A stretch of 64,000 nucleotides of DNA from Verrucomicrobia bacterium Tous-C9LFEB (GCA_002304345.1 NEUU01000005.1:165933-229932), one strand, 5' to 3'; positions 20,041 through 24,854 are shown, counted from the stretch's first letter. Translations and numbers: made by a program. Notes: generated by a model from the letters alone, not told the origin.

Positions 20041-20133
20041 GACGAAATTAACGAGATTTACGAAATTGAAGAAAAGGCAAAGCTCAACGCCTTTCATTCC
20101 GTTTCAAATTCCGTTAATTCCGTAAATTTCGTC
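20041..20133. repeat. atp intercistronic quasi-palindromic AT-rich repeat R1 (atpD|atpC gap)
   Basis: Left arm GACGAAATTAACGAGATTTACGAAATTGAA and right arm TTCAAATTCCGTTAATTCCGTAAATTTCGTC. Each arm is three 9-mer units (T/A)ACG(A/G)(A/G)ATT, in inverted orientation around an AT-rich core. Confidence 0.8.
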
Positions 20134-20149
20134 AAAATCTTTTCTTTGC

Positions 20150-21559
20150 TTACTTGCTGGCGAGCGCCTGATCGATGCTGCCCTTCATGTAGAAGGCGGT
20201 TTCGGGCACGTCGTCGTGTTTGCCGTCGAGGATTTCCTTGAAGCCGCGGATCGTTTCCTTGAGCGGAACCTGCTCGCCCTTGGTGCCGGTGAAAATTTCG
20301 GCGACGGTGAACGGCTGGCTGAGGAAGCGCTGGATTTTGCGCGCGCGATAAACGGTGAGTTTATCCTCGGGCGAAAGTTCGTCCATGCCCAGGATGGCGA
20401 TGATGTCCTGCAAATCCTTGTAGCGTTGCAGCACTTTCTGCACGCCACGGGCGACGGCGTAGTGTTCTTCGCCGACGATATCGGGAGCGAGCGCCTTCGA
20501 GGTGGAAGCGAGGGGATCGACTGCAGGATAGATGCCGAGTTCCGCGATGGAGCGCTCGAGCACGATCGTGGAATCGAGGTGCGCGAAGGTGTTTGCCGGA
20601 GCCGGATCGGTCAAGTCATCCGCAGGCACGTAGACGGCCTGGAACGAGGTGATGGAACCGTTCTTGGTGGAAGTGATGCGTTCCTGCAAGTCGCCCATTT
20701 CCGCGGCGAGAGTCGGCTGGTAACCGACCGCGCTCGGGGTGCGACCCAGCAAGGCGGACACTTCGGAACCGGCCTGCGAGAAACGGAAAATGTTATCGAT
20801 GAACAGGAGCACGTCCTGGTTCTTTTCATCGCGGAAATATTCGGTCATCGCGAGAGCCGAGAGCGCGACGCGCAGACGGGCGCCGGGGGGTTCATTCATC
20901 TGGCCGTACACGAGCGCGACCTTGGACTTGGAGAGATCCTTCTGGTCGATAACGCCCGACTCGGACATTTCGCTGTAAAGATCGTTACCTTCACGGGTAC
21001 GTTCACCGACACCCGCGAACACGGAGTAACCGCCGTGCACTTTGGCGATGTTGTTGATGAGCTCCATGATGACGACGGTCTTGCCGACGCCCGCACCACC
21101 GAACGCGCCGACCTTGCCGCCCTTGGTGAAGGGACAGATCAGATCGATGACCTTGATGCCGGTCTCGAGGATGGTGGCCTTGGTGTCCTGATCGAGGAGC
21201 GAGGGGGCCTTGCGGTGAATCGGGTAGCGCTTGGTGAAGGTGACGGGGCCGCGTTCGTCGGCGGGTTCGCCGAGGACGTTGAAGATGCGACCGAGAACGC
21301 CTTCGCCCACGGGGACGGAGATGGGGGCGCCGGTGTCGGTGACGGCCATGCCGCGCTTGAGACCTTCCGAGGAGGACATGGCGATGGAGCGGACCCAGCC
21401 TTCGCCGAGGTGCTGTTGCACTTCGAGGGTGAGTGTGTTCGGTTTGCCGAGCACATCATAGGTGACGGTGAGGGCGTGGTAGATTTCCGGCACGTGGCCG
21501 TCGGCGAATTCCACGTCGACTACGGGGCCGATCACTTGGACGATTTTTCCTGTGTTCAT
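20150..21559 (-). CDS. atpD: F0F1 ATP synthase subunit beta
   Basis: Walker A (GGAGVGKT) and the canonical beta-subunit sequence throughout. 469 aa. Confidence 0.97.
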
Positions 21560-21605
21560 GGGGCTGGGTTTCTTTTTTGGGTGATTTCTGAAAAGGGTTT
21601 TTTAA

Positions 21606-21720
21606 GACGAAATTAACGAGATTTACGAAATTTGAAAAAGGCGCGAGGTGCTTGTTTGTTTCCTATTTTTCACTTCTATTTCTTGTTTTAACTAATTCCG
21701 TTAATTTCGTTAATTCCGTC
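21606..21720. repeat. atp intercistronic repeat R2 (atpG|atpD gap)
   Basis: Same terminal arms as R1 (GACGAAATTAACGAGATTTACGAAATTTGAA ... AATTCCGTTAATTTCGTTAATTCCGTC) with a different AT-rich core. Confidence 0.8.
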
Positions 21721-21743
21721 AAAAAGTTTGTTTTGCCTTGTCT

Positions 21744-22601
21744 CTAGCCGAGCGCGGCTTGCGCGGTGCTGATTTCGAGCAGTTCGGTCGTGATCATGGC
21801 CTGACGTGCCTTGTTGTATTCAAGGGTCAAGTCTTTCACGAGCTGCTTGGCGTTGTCGGTGGCGTTCTTCATGGCGACCATGCGGGCGCTGTGTTCGGAG
21901 GCCTTGGAATCGAGCAAGGTTTGATACGTCTCGTAGTGGACGTAGAACGGCAGCAACTTGGCGAGCAGTTCCGGGCCGCTCGGTTCGAAGAGGTAGTCGC
22001 CGGGGGTGATGCCGGTGATGGCCACCTTGGCATCGAGCTTGTGCGCACCGATGGGGAGGATATCGATGACGGTCGGCTTTTGGTTGATCGTGTTGATGAA
22101 GCGGGTGTAGTGGATTTCCACCGCATCGAAGTCGTGCTTGATGAAGCCGTCGATCAGGAACGTGCTGATGCGTTTGCTGTCGCGGAAGGTGAAATTGTCG
22201 CGAATCTCGAAGTCGGCCAGCAAGGTCTTGCCCGAACGCGCGAGGAATTGGCGGCCCTTGCGACCGGCGGTGACGTACACCTTGTTGGGTGCGTCCTGCT
22301 TCAGGACTTCGCGCAGCAAATTGGTATTGAGCGCGCCGCAGAGACCCTTGTCCGTGGTGACGACGAGCGCGCAGATCTTCTTCACTTTGCGCTCTTCGAG
22401 GAGCGGGTGGGTGAAGTCGCCGCCCGCGTCGTGCAGATGCGCGCCGAGTTCATCCAAACGCAACGCGTAGGGACGGCCGGCAATGGCCGCCTGCTGCGCC
22501 TTGCGCATGCGGGAAGCGGCCACCATCTGCATGGCTTTGGTGATCTGCGCCGTGTTTTTGATCGACTTGATCCGGCGTCTGATGTCGCGCAAGTTGGCCA
22601 T
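21744..22601 (-). CDS. atpG: F0F1 ATP synthase subunit gamma
   Basis: 285 aa with N- and C-terminal coiled-coil helices (MANLRDIRRRIKSIKNTAQITKAMQMVAASRMRKAQ...). Confidence 0.9.
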   Translation of the reverse strand: MANLRDIRRRIKSIKNTAQITKAMQMVAASRMRKAQQAAIAGRPYALRLDELGAHLHDAGGDFTHPLLEERKVKKICALVVTTDKGLCGALNTNLLREVLKQDAPNKVYVTAGRKGRQFLARSGKTLLADFEIRDNFTFRDSKRISTFLIDGFIKHDFDAVEIHYTRFINTINQKPTVIDILPIGAHKLDAKVAITGITPGDYLFEPSGPELLAKLLPFYVHYETYQTLLDSKASEHSARMVAMKNATDNAKQLVKDLTLEYNKARQAMITTELLEISTAQAALG

Positions 22602-22743: not shown

Positions 22744-22761
22744 TAAAAATTCTTTCCCTTC

Positions 22762-24291
22762 TTATCCCTGATAGCTGTCGGCGAAGGCGCCCACGGCTTT
22801 TTTGAGTTCGGCGGAAATCGTGTCGTCGATGGCACCCTTTTCGCGCAGGGCGGTCAGCACGCCTTCGGCGCGGGTGGTGAGATATTCCGTGAGCTTGGTC
22901 TGGAAGTCCTTCACCTTGTCGACGGCGACCTTGTCGAAGAAGTTATTCTGCATGGCCCACATGACGGCGGCCTGCACTTCGACGGGGATCGGGTTGTACT
23001 GGGGTTGCTTGAAGAGTTCGACGATGCGCGCACCGCGATCGAGACGAGCCTTGGTGGCGGCGTCGAGATCGGAGCCGAACTGGGCAAACGCGGCGAGTTC
23101 GCGGAACTGGGCGAGTTCGCCCTTGATCTTGCCCGCGACCTGTTTGATCGCCTTGATCTGCGCGGCGGAACCGACGCGCGAGACGGAGAGACCGACCGAG
23201 ATGGCGGGGCGGATGCCCTGGTAGAAGAGATCGGTTTCGAGGTAGATCTGACCGTCGGTGATGGAGATCACGTTCGTGGGGATGTACGCCGAGACGTCGC
23301 CGGCCTGCGTTTCGATGATCGGCAGCGCGGTGAGGGAACCACCACCGGCCGCTTCGCTGAGACGCGCGGAGCGCTCGAGCAGACGGGAGTGGAGATAGAA
23401 CACGTCGCCGGGATACGCTTCACGACCGGAGGGACGTTTCAGAATCAGCGAGACCTGGCGGTAGGCGACGGCGTGCTTGGACAAATCGTCGAACACGATG
23501 AGCGCGTCCTGATTGTTGTCCATGAACCATTCGCCAATCGCGGCACCGGCGAACGGCGCGAGGTATTGGGTGGCGGCGCTGTCGGAGGCGGTGGCGGAAA
23601 CGATGACGGTGTAGCGCAGCGCGTCCGTGGCGGTAAGGGTGTCAATGACGCGGGCGACGTTGGAGTTCTTCTGGCCGACGGCGACGTAGATGGAGTAGAG
23701 CGGGCGGAAGCCGGGCTTGCCTTCGTTGGCCTTGTTGATGCGGGCCTGATTGATGATGGCGTCGATCGCGATCGTGGTTTTGCCGGTGGCGCGATCGCCG
23801 ATGATCAATTCGCGCTGGCCGCGACCGATCGGGATCATGGCGTCGATGGGCATGATGCCGGTCTGCACGGGCTGGCTGACGGATTTGCGCTTGATGATGC
23901 CGGGGGCGATTTTTTCGACGGGATAATAGGTGTCGGTGACGATCGGGCCTTTGCCGTCGAGGGGTTGGCCGATGGTGTTCACCACGCGACCGAGGAGCGC
24001 CTTGCCGACGGGGACCTGCAGGAGGCGGCCCGTGGTTTTGACTTCGTCGCCTTCCTTGATCTCGAGGTAGTCGCCGAGGATGACGGCGCCGACTTCGGTT
24101 TCTTCAAGGTTGAGGGCGAGGCCGAACGTGCCGTTCGGGAACTCGATCATTTCGTTGAGGGCGACGTCGGTGAGACCTTCGATCTTGGCCACGCCGTCGG
24201 AGATTTCACGCACGGTGCCGACGTTGGTACGAGAGACCCCGGTTTTGAGGTTCGCGATCTGGTCTTTGATGTCTTGGACGAGGTTGCTCAT
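22762..24291 (-). CDS. atpA: F0F1 ATP synthase subunit alpha
   Basis: Walker A GDRATGKT and the canonical alpha-subunit sequence. 509 aa. Confidence 0.97.
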
Positions 24292-24328
24292 GGCTTTTTA
24301 GTGGTGTGGAGTTGTTCGGAAAAAAGGG

Positions 24329-24721
24329 TTATTGCAGGTTCTGGCGCAGGGTGTTGAGGCGACCGCGGATGGAGTCATCCCAGACATCGCTGCCGCGCTG
24401 GACGCGCAGGCCACCGATGAGGGAGGGGTTGATCGTGTAGTTCTTTTGCAGAGCGGGGCCAAATTTGCGTTCGAGCGCGGCGAAGGCGGAGGCACCCTGG
24501 TCGGGCAACGCGACGGCGGAGGTGACGCTGACGGTGTTTTGCTCGACTTCGATTTCCACGAGCTTGAGGAGCCGGGTGGCGATGGCGAGGTAGTTGCGCG
24601 GCTTTTGCGTGCAGAGCGCGTCGACGGTCTCGCGCACGCGGGATTCGTCGAGCTGTCCGTTCACGACGGAAAACTTGAAGAGCTTCTTGGCGGTCTGTCG
24701 GGCTTCGCGGTTGATCTTCAT
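24329..24721 (-). CDS. atpH: F0F1 ATP synthase subunit delta (OSCP)
   Basis: 130-aa protein between atpF and atpA whose C-terminal region resembles OSCP (LIGGLRVQRGSDVWDDSIRGRLNTL). Shorter than a typical delta subunit. Confidence 0.65.
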   Translation of the reverse strand: MKINREARQTAKKLFKFSVVNGQLDESRVRETVDALCTQKPRNYLAIATRLLKLVEIEVEQNTVSVTSAVALPDQGASAFAALERKFGPALQKNYTINPSLIGGLRVQRGSDVWDDSIRGRLNTLRQNLQ

Positions 24722-24741
24722 TTTTTGAAGGGGATTTTTTT

Positions 24742-24854
24742 GACGAAATTAACGGAATTTACGAAATGGAAAGGCAGGAAGGCTTCGATCCGATTTCAGC
24801 TTCTTGTCTCGTTATTTTGTTTTAATCAATTTCGTTAATTCCGTTAATTTCGTC
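24742..24854. repeat. atp intercistronic repeat R4 (atpF|atpH gap)
   Basis: GACGAAATTAACGGAATTTACGAAATGGAA ... CAATTTCGTTAATTCCGTTAATTTCGTC: same arm structure as R1-R3. Confidence 0.8.

Follow-up and report, generated by a model that had tools for sequence, protein, structure and literature searches.

Eukaryotic Foldback (FB) transposons have inverted ends that consist of tandem short subrepeats, and their variable middle is missing in some cases and bears genes in others. The intervening sequences (IVSs) of 23S rRNA lie within rRNA helices, are excised by RNase III, and may carry a small ORF. The Correia elements of Neisseria (CREE or NEMIS), a group of MITEs, measure about 100-155 bp and have terminal inverted repeats (TIRs) of about 26 bp; they are intergenic, near gene starts, and cotranscribed, and their stems are cut by RNase III (PMC10969869). 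ERIC/IRU and RUP elements, about 107-127 bp long, form imperfect palindromes within transcription units and have orientation-dependent effects on mRNA stability (PMC10969869). REP and BIME sequences are extragenic, palindromic, and found between codirectional genes, and each CGTC-tagged REP forms one hairpin of 20-40 bp that combines an 8-9 bp stem and a 4-5 nt loop with an unpaired CGTC tag and a CCA tail (Di Nocera et al., 2013; PMC3733652). The hupL MITE family of Ca. Thiomargarita has a proposed link to PD-(D/E)XK_2 (YhgA-like) genes (PMC4853749).

We analyzed a 64 kb stretch of DNA (the window) from Verrucomicrobia bacterium Tous-C9LFEB, in which four gaps of the ATP synthase (atp) operon hold palindromic elements that end in heptamer arrays. 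These elements resemble FB transposons only in architecture; those transposons are eukaryotic and much larger, and they use other enzymology. The atp elements share with IVSs long complementary ends, a stem on the transcript, and, in the wider family, a possible small ORF, but they lie in mRNA intercistronic gaps rather than in rRNA helices. Correia elements, although similar in size and location, are unrelated in sequence and lack short-unit arrays in their TIRs; they have an IHF site, promoters, and a TA duplication, whereas no sigma-70-like promoter was detected for the atp elements and larger members of the family carry genes. ERIC/IRU and RUP differ in taxon and sequence, lack heptamer-array ends, and have no known gene-carrying kin with the same ends. 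The atp elements likewise end in CGTC, but a REP or CGTC-tagged REP assignment was rejected, as they are 93-115 bp long with 26-nt three-unit arms and 41-63 nt cores, and their CGTC is paired with GACG (PMC3733652). The hupL MITEs provide a parallel for association with a PD-(D/E)XK protein instead of a DDE/HUH transposase, but the protein belongs to PF12784 rather than PF13366, and the elements have an ordinary 19-bp inverted repeat with a 10-bp direct repeat and no heptamer arrays. Integron attC sites were also rejected: there is no GTTRRRY core, cargo lies between two arms and not beside a complete palindrome, and copies are scattered in housekeeping operons. Rfam gave no match at gathering score, only sub-threshold plant and animal miRNA-precursor models, which were hit because the sequences are long hairpins. 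A literature search found no matching described family either, in agreement with the original prediction.

Results

The proposal that elements with three-unit inverted arms occupy four atp gaps was confirmed. Allowing at most one mismatch, ACGRRATTWACGRRATT has 16 matches in the window (0 expected), all inside these gaps, and all eight arms match GACGRAATTWACGRRATTWACGRAAT exactly. Outside the eight arms, GACGRAATTWACGRRATTWACGRAAT is absent from the 64 kb even at up to 7/26 mismatches (shuffled sequence also gave 0), which upholds the claim that the window holds no further copy. In each element, three ACGRRAT heptamers with a 9-bp period precede a variable core, beyond which the same three units recur in inverted orientation (Table 1). 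The 24 units are ACGAAAT (14), ACGGAAT (7), and ACGAGAT (3). Within an element, the arms are 77%-91% complementary over 26-33 nt. The arms of element 1 reach 33 nt and 91%; its 5' arm reads GACGAAATTAACGGAATTAACGAAAT in mRNA sense, its core ends in a TGCCTTTCC box, and a T-run and an A-run flank it. The GC content of the elements is 31%-37%, compared with 58.6% for the window. As proposed, the gaps are stretched: they measure 127, 184, 160, and 152 nt, versus medians, in the same order, of 29, 16, 38, and 9 nt in 38-66 relatives.

Table 1. Elements and remnants in the atp operon of the window
Feature	Location	Coordinates (strand)	Length	Arms (mRNA order)	Arm starts, + strand; - strand	Core or content
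Element 1	atpF/atpH gap	24742..24854 (-)	113 bp	24854-24828, 24768-24742	24742; 24854	61 nt
Element 2	atpA/atpG gap	22645..22743 (-)	99 bp	22743-22717, 22671-22645	22645; 22743	45-47 nt
Element 3	atpG/atpD gap	21606..21720 (-)	115 bp	21720-21694, 21632-21606	21606; 21720	63 nt
Element 4	atpD/atpC gap	20041..20133 (-)	93 bp	20133-20107, 20067-20041	20041; 20133	41 nt, with a small hairpin inside
Older 3' remnant	atpA/atpG gap, 3' of element 2	22620..22640 (-)				One terminal unit and box
Decayed copy	atpB leader	about 26786..26837 (-)				Outermost unit of each arm only

The atpA/atpG element had originally been placed at 22620-22743, an interval that resolves into element 2 and a separate, older remnant. 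In mRNA sense the remnant reads CTGCCTTTAAGG-AATTTCGTC, then TAAAAA, which points to a second, earlier insertion in this gap. The degenerate fifth copy proposed for the atpB leader retains the outermost units of both arms (GACGAAAA ... ATTTCGTC, then TAAAG, with GACGAAA...TTTCGTC kept), but its remaining units are gone; it is plausibly a decayed member of the family. With this copy and the nested atpA/atpG remnant, insertions appear to have recurred.

Long imperfect hairpins are predicted for both strands of the four elements. Folding of the mRNA strand gave stable structures in all four gaps, as the original prediction had anticipated, with energies of -30 to -39 kcal/mol and z = -2.9 to -6.7 (-38.9 kcal/mol and z = -6.7 for element 1). 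Hairpins had been expected to end 15-25 nt before the next start codon. The distances are 20, 18, 46, and 18 nt; three fall in that range and the 46 nt of one gap does not, and the 18 nt in the atpA/atpG gap belongs to the remnant, the main element ending at 43 nt. The elements were rejected as intrinsic terminators because, on both strands, a T-run precedes the hairpin and an A-run follows it, whereas a terminator would have a GC-rich stem with a U-run after it. A consensus scan found 12 terminator-like sites, no excess over shuffled sequence (10.9 ± 3.7), and the only element feature that it flagged was the weak inner hairpin of element 4. Covariation at the R positions is weak (13 doubly changed cells versus 7.4 ± 2.0 in shuffles), and in about half of the copies the spacer positions do not pair.

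About 12 MAGs of Verrucomicrobiota together contain 35 loci with the exact 26-nt arm pattern (chance expectation about 0.03, estimated by hand from the information content of the pattern rather than computed by a tool). Only 2 of the 35 loci lie in atp operons and 33 lie elsewhere, so restriction to the operon is not a property of the family. UBA1321 has nine exact loci, seven of them outside atp, and BOG_genome_mining.10 and Brown_S.bin.4 have six and five. The gene pairs that flank non-atp copies include IMPDH-like/guaA, aroB/dprA, pheS/ileS, thyA/folA, and hisD/hisB. The copies fit tightly: 6-25 nt separate the upstream stop codon from one arm, and 5-30 nt lie between the other arm and the next ATG. 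At 12 of 14 codirectional loci the box-bearing arm faces the downstream start, a bias that could reflect selection at the RNA level. Unpaired single arms occur at several loci. Arms are homogenized within each genome and form genome-specific subfamilies (GACGAAAT in the window; GACGGAAT and GACCGAAT in UBA1321). For the source genome, about 76 kb could be read (the window and about 12 kb more), and every copy in it is in the atp operon. This clustering is real. Well below one copy would be expected in the approximately 72 kb of non-atp sequence, and the absence of copies there therefore says little.

Comparison with related atp operons revealed both intact and decayed states. UBA1321 (77% identity in AtpG) has intact elements in three atp gaps, and its atpA/atpG and atpD/atpC cores are closer to each other than to their positional counterparts in the window. 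In L117 (AtpG 92%), the atpA/atpG copy is decayed and the atpG/atpD gap has no element; L118 and L119 (AtpG 89%) have gaps of 38-40 nt with single-unit remnants at most. The window and UBA1321 thus carry an atpG/atpD insert, L117, L118, and L119 have the empty site, and the atpA/atpG gap is in an intact, decayed, or one-unit state depending on the genome. About 80 more distant atp operons (AtpG 54%-68%) have tight gaps, and such arms were not found in them. Because the copies of close relatives are decayed or absent, a conserved device for setting subunit stoichiometry, a role that had been suggested for the elements, is disfavored. In the window, the atpG/atpD insert directly abuts the stop codon and is followed by the complete empty-site sequence; this one comparison of a filled with an empty site (TAA/TAG ... 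TAA-AAA-ACCC) allows no clean direct repeat to be defined.

Core length in the family varies between about 20 bp and about 430 bp, and the long cores contain a small ORF. The commonest cargo between identical arms is a gene for a GxxExxY (PDDEXK_3) mini-nuclease, as at L003 and L029 (TIGR04256, E = 1e-36); other small ORFs are bracketed by identical arms at L033 and L035. The window contains no GxxExxY gene. No classical transposase was found between arms, and no transposition event or target-site duplication was identified. The GxxExxY protein has about 140 aa, its structure model (pLDDT 91.5) best matches the folds of Cas4 SSO0001 and lambda exonuclease, and its invariant residues are D...ExK and QxxxY. 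The link between these genes and the arms appears as an association in a small sample, alongside other cargos and many gene-less copies, and the nuclease in cassettes with identical ends is a candidate for a role in mobility.

At the nuoC/GxxExxY/nuoD locus, we compared five orthologues with 61%-90% amino-acid identity. Third codon positions are saturated (34%-61% identical), whereas 28 of 30 heptamers are perfect and the 1-2 nt spacers between them vary without compensating changes. This conservation at the sequence level points to selection on the heptamers beyond pairing alone and gives the arms the appearance of sites that a sequence-specific protein recognizes. Such invariance at a vertically inherited locus does not fit purely selfish decay and requires either a function at the level of the host or the gene, or gene conversion.

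Distant relatives (L066, L100, L075, and L112) have array hairpins made of other units in their atp gaps, and L049 has them just 3' of atpC. The units include ATGGAAG, GTTACA, CGCGAAG, and CACAGAG in different lineages, and the architecture is alike. In other phyla, analogous arrays of different short units border the GxxExxY genes of Sphingomonas, Bernardetia, Gemmatirosa, Prevotella, and probably Persicobacter; in Treponema, a single inverted repeat of 11-12 bp takes their place.

Discussion

The four atp elements are probably gene-less, MITE-like members of a Verrucomicrobiota family of foldback insertion cassettes. Like prokaryotic MITEs they are 93-115 bp long and non-coding, have terminal inverted repeats, and show presence/absence polymorphism at orthologous sites (atpG/atpD and atpA/atpG); dispersed copies are seen in the relatives, and in the readable part of the source genome only the atp copies. 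Among the options that had been raised, the evidence favors a MITE family together with iterated protein-binding sites. Beyond the architecture, dispersal, patchy presence, and heptamer sequence conservation that we observed, we infer mobility, the identity of a trans-acting factor, and any effect on the RNA. A cassette is delimited by two mutually inverted arrays of three ACGRRAT heptamers with an 8-9 bp period, with a T-run outside one and an A-run outside the other, and sits between the stop codon and the start codon of codirectional neighbors. The heptamers would most likely be recognized by a sequence-specific DNA-acting protein supplied in trans, for which a GxxExxY nuclease of matching specificity is the best candidate. 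The atp copies would be passengers on the polycistronic mRNA, tolerated but not required, where they may form imperfect 26-31 bp stems whose ends lie 18-46 nt ahead of the next ATG, with an A-rich leader left free; stems of this kind would be expected to serve as substrates for RNase III-type cleavage or as 3'-end stabilizers. More tentatively, GxxExxY proteins may be the nucleases of an unrecognized class of small mobile cassettes with inverted, family-specific heptamer arrays and precise insertion between cistrons (in nuo, atp, fab, his, and other operons of several phyla), with the atp hairpins as non-autonomous derivatives mobilized in trans.

It is also conceivable, though we consider it unlikely, that the elements have, or have since gained, a function in the atp mRNA, as RNase III/RNase E processing sites, 3'-end stabilizers, or insulators that uncouple translation of atpH, atpG, atpD, and atpC and tune subunit ratios. 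The stability of the predicted stems (z down to -6.7), their location exactly in the intercistronic gaps with A-rich leaders left before the starts, the shared orientation of all four atp elements and of 12 of 14 loci family-wide, the occupation of three gaps in UBA1321, and the weak covariation at R positions are consistent with such a role, and there are precedents in RNase III cleavage of Correia elements and altered mRNA decay with ERIC (PMC10969869). However, relatives with 89%-92% AtpG identity have lost the elements or never had them, gaps are tight in more than 80 other Verrucomicrobiota atp operons, and the same element stands between unrelated gene pairs. Conservation extends to the heptamer sequence and not merely to pairing, with spacers unpaired in about half of the copies. 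Moreover, the elements precede subunits of low copy number (delta, gamma, and epsilon) and high copy number (beta) alike, and so no simple stoichiometric logic fits.

Invariant heptamers with variable spacers, partnerless single arms, and genome-specific subfamilies that fit coevolution with a protein could also be expected if the arrays were DNA sites for a host protein unconnected with mobility (a nucleoid-associated protein or a regulator) and the hairpin potential were a by-product. This is improbable, as sites within operons whose functions are unrelated speak against a regulon, and copies are patchy and decay among close relatives; the use of unrelated units in the same architecture by different lineages is more in keeping with diversifying selfish elements than with a single host factor. 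Slightly less probable still is that the family is confined to atp in the source genome, where one founder would have spread by local gene conversion or hopping, and that "operon-specific" is true there. Arms homogenized in each genome, the mutual resemblance of two UBA1321 atp cores, and the lack of a non-atp copy in the window and a further 12 kb or so of the source genome agree with this, but in UBA1321, the closest genome with data, most exact loci are outside atp, and far fewer than one non-atp copy was expected in the sequence available.

For annotation, the atp repeats are best read as copies of a mobile element and not as a regulatory device of the ATP synthase. They probably also break assemblies, as the atpG contigs of close relatives are just 1.3-2 kb long. 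As mobile DNA, the family as we interpret it is unusual in its ends (foldback-like arrays of short units), in its niche (essential operons, exactly between stop and start codons), and in its candidate partner, a Cas4/RecB-like GxxExxY mini-nuclease of about 140 aa. With its four predicted stems of 26-31 bp, the essential atp mRNA is a natural setting in which to test how bacteria cope with structured insertions in a polycistronic transcript. If the link to GxxExxY holds, it would assign a role to a large, widespread orphan protein family and would explain the small "hitch-hiker" genes that pepper nuo, atp, and fab operons.

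Foldback Elements in the atp Operon

A search of the window with the two-unit pattern ACGRRATTWACGRRATT returned 16 matches where none was expected, all of them in the atpF-atpH, atpA-atpG, atpG-atpD, and atpD-atpC gaps, and all eight arms of the elements in these gaps fit GACGRAATTWACGRRATTWACGRAAT exactly. The repeats described in the original prediction are thus real, and its observation that the rest of the 64-kb window holds no copy was borne out even when 7 mismatches in 26 positions were allowed. The elements are 93–115 bp long with a GC content of 31%–37% (58.6% for the window), and they stretch gaps that are usually tight, as had been proposed: the element-bearing gaps measure 127–184 nt, versus medians of 9–38 nt in 38–66 related operons. 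The coordinates first assigned hold in general, except that the stretch assigned to the atpA-atpG copy comprises the element proper and an older remnant. Of each arm of the fifth copy placed in the atpB leader, just the outer unit survives.

Long imperfect hairpins are predicted on both strands of the elements, and folding of the mRNA strand gave −30 to −39 kcal/mol (z = −2.9 to −6.7), in agreement with the structure first suggested. The hairpins end 18–46 nt before the next ATG, a wider range than the 15–25 nt or so originally claimed. A candidate alternative structure, in which a pyrimidine box pairs with the purine-rich 5′ flank, was spotted by eye only.

Two other structures lie nearby. 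A GC-rich inverted repeat upstream of the operon, of a different kind from the AT-rich elements, has 47-nt arms that are 98% complementary and 40 nt apart; its match to Rfam mir-1304 is below threshold (47.7 bits; the gathering score is 90). Within the atpE-atpF gap lies a small stem-loop that contains GC pairs (CAACCTC...GAGGTTG) and has no relation to the elements.

Positions of the features in the window (no handle) and at loci of other genomes and metagenomes (L-handles)
Feature	Position	Strand	Unit
atpB	25787-26638	-	
atpE	25492-25710	-	
atpF	24874-25431	-	
atpH	24329-24721	-	
atpA	22762-24291	-	
atpG	21744-22601	-	
atpD	20150-21559	-	
atpC	19609-20022	-	
atpA-atpG element proper	22645-22743	-	
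Older remnant, atpA-atpG gap	22620-22640	-	
GC-rich inverted repeat	27080-27126 and 27167-27213		
Stem-loop, atpE-atpF gap	~25452-25479		
L029 GxxExxY gene, nuoC-nuoD	4040-4549		
L029, two further GxxExxY genes	940-1600 and 5600-6200		
L124-L133 GxxExxY genes, nuoC-nuoD	around 1960-2470		
L125 membrane ORF and arm, nuoB-nuoC	857-1360		
L128 membrane ORF and arm, nuoB-nuoC	797-1310		
L005 lone arm	4776-5020		
L025 lone arm	1-266		
L066 atpG-atpD	1603-1697		ATGGAAG
L100 atpD-atpC	5204-5318		GTTACA
L075 atpD-atpC	7278-7409		ACGATTT
L112 atpA-atpG	1220-1555		CGCAAAG/CCTTCGTG
L049, just after atpC	about 5870-5945		ACGCGAAT
L136 array-flanked GxxExxY	1155-1620		
L138 array-flanked GxxExxY	1575-1670		

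The Elements Belong to a Dispersed Family

The original prediction regarded the repeats as operon-specific, which does not hold for the family as a whole. The 26-nt arm pattern occurs at 35 loci, spread over about a dozen Verrucomicrobiota MAGs (one genome per species scanned). By chance, we would expect ~0.03 matches, as estimated from the pattern's information content. Only two of these 35 loci, L007 and L004 (UBA1321), are atp loci. The MAGs are labeled Methylacidiphilales, UBA1321, Terrimicrobiaceae, and so on, with one mislabeled Betaproteobacteria; a search of viral contigs gave zero matches. Outside atp, the elements fit tightly into co-directional gaps, with the upstream stop codon 6–25 nt from one arm and 5–30 nt between the second arm and the following ATG; among the gene pairs that flank them are IMPDH-like/guaA, aroB/dprA, pheS/ileS, thyA/folA, and hisD/hisB. 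The family consensus is TTTT(T/A)-GACGGAATTAACGGAATTWACGRAAT, and the window has its own arm variant, GACGAAAT. The 3′ arm is preceded by a pyrimidine box, which reads TGCCTTTCC on the sense strand. Of 14 co-directional loci, 12 have the arm with the box toward the downstream start; this orientation bias is no more than suggestive, since the four copies in atp are not necessarily independent.

Two lone arms whose partners were not detected (L005 and L025) lie directly 5′ of a HicB-like ORF and of an AbrB-like antitoxin ORF; the former label was given by eye, and an NCBIfam scan of that ORF gave no match, and the latter comes from a match below the curated cut-off. In the nuoB-nuoC gap of L125 and L128, an ~160-aa membrane ORF with no Pfam match has an arm made up of three ATTCCGT units on its downstream side, 10 nt from the ATG of nuoC, and no arm was seen upstream of it.

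Gene-Carrying Cassettes and Constraint on the Heptamers

In larger cassettes the arms surround genes: small membrane ORFs in L033 and L035, and a gene of the GxxExxY (PDDEXK_3) nuclease family in L003 and L029 (TIGR04256, E about 1e-36; PF13366). In L029 the gene is located in the nuoC-nuoD gap, and GxxExxY genes occupy this site in many lineages, with 61%–100% amino-acid identity. Every one has three ACGGAAT units on each side, and the homologues of 61%–93% identity at this position all retain the ends of the L029 cassette. The upstream end reads TTTTG-ACGGAAT-(1–2 nt)-ACGGAAT-(1–2 nt)-ACGGAAT, the last unit and a following G making the ATG start codon, and the downstream end reads ATTCCGT three times, then CAAAA.

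The nuoC-nuoD site is vertically inherited and its heptamers are invariant. Among five lineages whose third codon positions are 34%–61% identical, all but 2 of 30 heptamers are perfect. The spacers of the arrays differ in length and base with no compensating changes, so that the heptamer sequence is under constraint, and not pairing alone. Counting pairs over 23 elements led to the same view, with 91% of cells paired and spacer positions often unpaired; covariation between the two arms gave a weak signal that is confounded by relatedness.

L029 carries two more GxxExxY genes on the same 8-kb stretch, flanked by different inverted arrays (ACCAAATT four times, and TTTTAACAGGAAAACATGAA), and hybrid arms in L003, L011, and L012 combine ACGGAATT units with ACCAAATT units. 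Resemblances between the atp cores and the first and last codons in GxxExxY cassettes (for example, TGATTAAAACA versus ATGATTAACAGA, GAAGCCTTCC versus GGAGCCTCCC) were too short and too AT-rich to be retained.

The structure model of GxxExxY is confident (pLDDT 91.5), its nearest folds are Cas4 SSO0001 and lambda exonuclease, and its D...ExK and QxxxY residues do not vary. A sequence search against PDB chains found no match; the fold search alone was informative. Next to nothing about this family is to be found in the searchable literature.

The Same Design with Other Units

Distant relatives also have hairpins in which three to four short units at an 8–9 bp period are followed by a short core and then by units in inverted orientation, with different unit sequences (see table). 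In other phyla, GxxExxY genes carried on plasmids and chromids have analogous arrays with lineage-specific units, including array-flanked genes in Alphaproteobacteria, Bacteroidota, and Gemmatimonadota (L135–L138). On a Sphingomonas plasmid (L136), the gene lies between fabD and fabG, with tttttt-CACGCGAAG-GCGCGAGG-ACGCGAAG-ATG upstream and the inverse array at the opposite end. In Bernardetia, CACAGAG arrays stand on both sides; in Gemmatirosa, a whole hairpin (ACGCGGAT three times, a loop, ATCCGCG three times) lies just 3′ of the gene; and the Prevotella leader contains ACAAAT three times. In these sequences, the array architecture is general beyond the family found in the window.

Another small hitch-hiker, an ORF6N-domain gene of ~190 aa (PF10543, E = 1e-31), lies between atpA and atpG in ~14 of 65 atp operons from Verrucomicrobiota metagenomes (L074, L056, L090, L106, L100, and ~9 others).

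Insertion History

Comparison with related atp operons, which the original prediction had called for, gave a mixed picture. UBA1321 (AtpG 77% identical) has intact atpA-atpG, atpG-atpD, and atpD-atpC elements. In L117 (92%), the atpA-atpG copy is decayed and the atpG-atpD gap has no element; L118 and L119 (89%) have 38–40-nt gaps with single-unit remnants in atpA-atpG (ACGGAAT; TTAACGAGA). Arms are absent and the gaps tight in the long contigs L120 and L121 (68%) and in 80 metagenome loci (54%–65%). The L119 atpG-atpD gap sequence (TAA-ACCCTTTTTCAACAAC...) is found whole directly 3′ of the window's element, which indicates insertion directly after the atpG stop codon. The atpA-atpG remnant and the decayed atpB-leader copy indicate that insertions recurred.

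Between the window and UBA1321 the arms align and the cores do not, and we therefore dropped core orthology; two UBA1321 cores resemble each other rather than their window counterparts. Because the UBA1321 cores resemble each other, the pattern fits descent with gene conversion and repeated insertion at identical sites alike. In each of two genomes, the atp operon holds three to four copies. The window derives from a 131.9-kb freshwater metagenome contig, and the ~12 kb of extra source sequence contains no further copy, with well under one expected at the density of relatives.

The closest AtpG relatives (proteins P0001–P0006, 78%–95% identity) are all on 1.3–2.0 kb contigs with little beyond atpG, a sign that the flanking repeats may interrupt assembly. 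The contigs of many GxxExxY homologues are also short, at 0.5–2 kb.

Discussion

The original prediction did not recognize the elements as a described type, and they match no promoter, terminator, Rfam family, or REP type. A sigma-70 scan found no promoter inside the atp elements, and terminator-like sites were no more frequent than in shuffles, so both the mobile-promoter and the terminator readings were set aside. An Rfam RNA family was rejected because a scan of 19–28 kb in the window gave only miRNA-precursor matches, all sub-threshold, and a CGTC-tagged REP family because its architecture does not match. On the best reading, the atp elements are MITE-like members of the foldback cassette family and themselves lack a gene.

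We propose that a sequence-specific protein would recognize the heptamer arrays, with GxxExxY as the leading, though unproven, candidate. In the atp mRNA, the elements are predicted to form stems of 26–31 bp. RNase III cleaves comparable stems in Correia elements (PMC10969869), and by analogy we infer that it may also cut the atp-element stems. That close relatives lack the elements argues that they are tolerated in the atp operon rather than needed.
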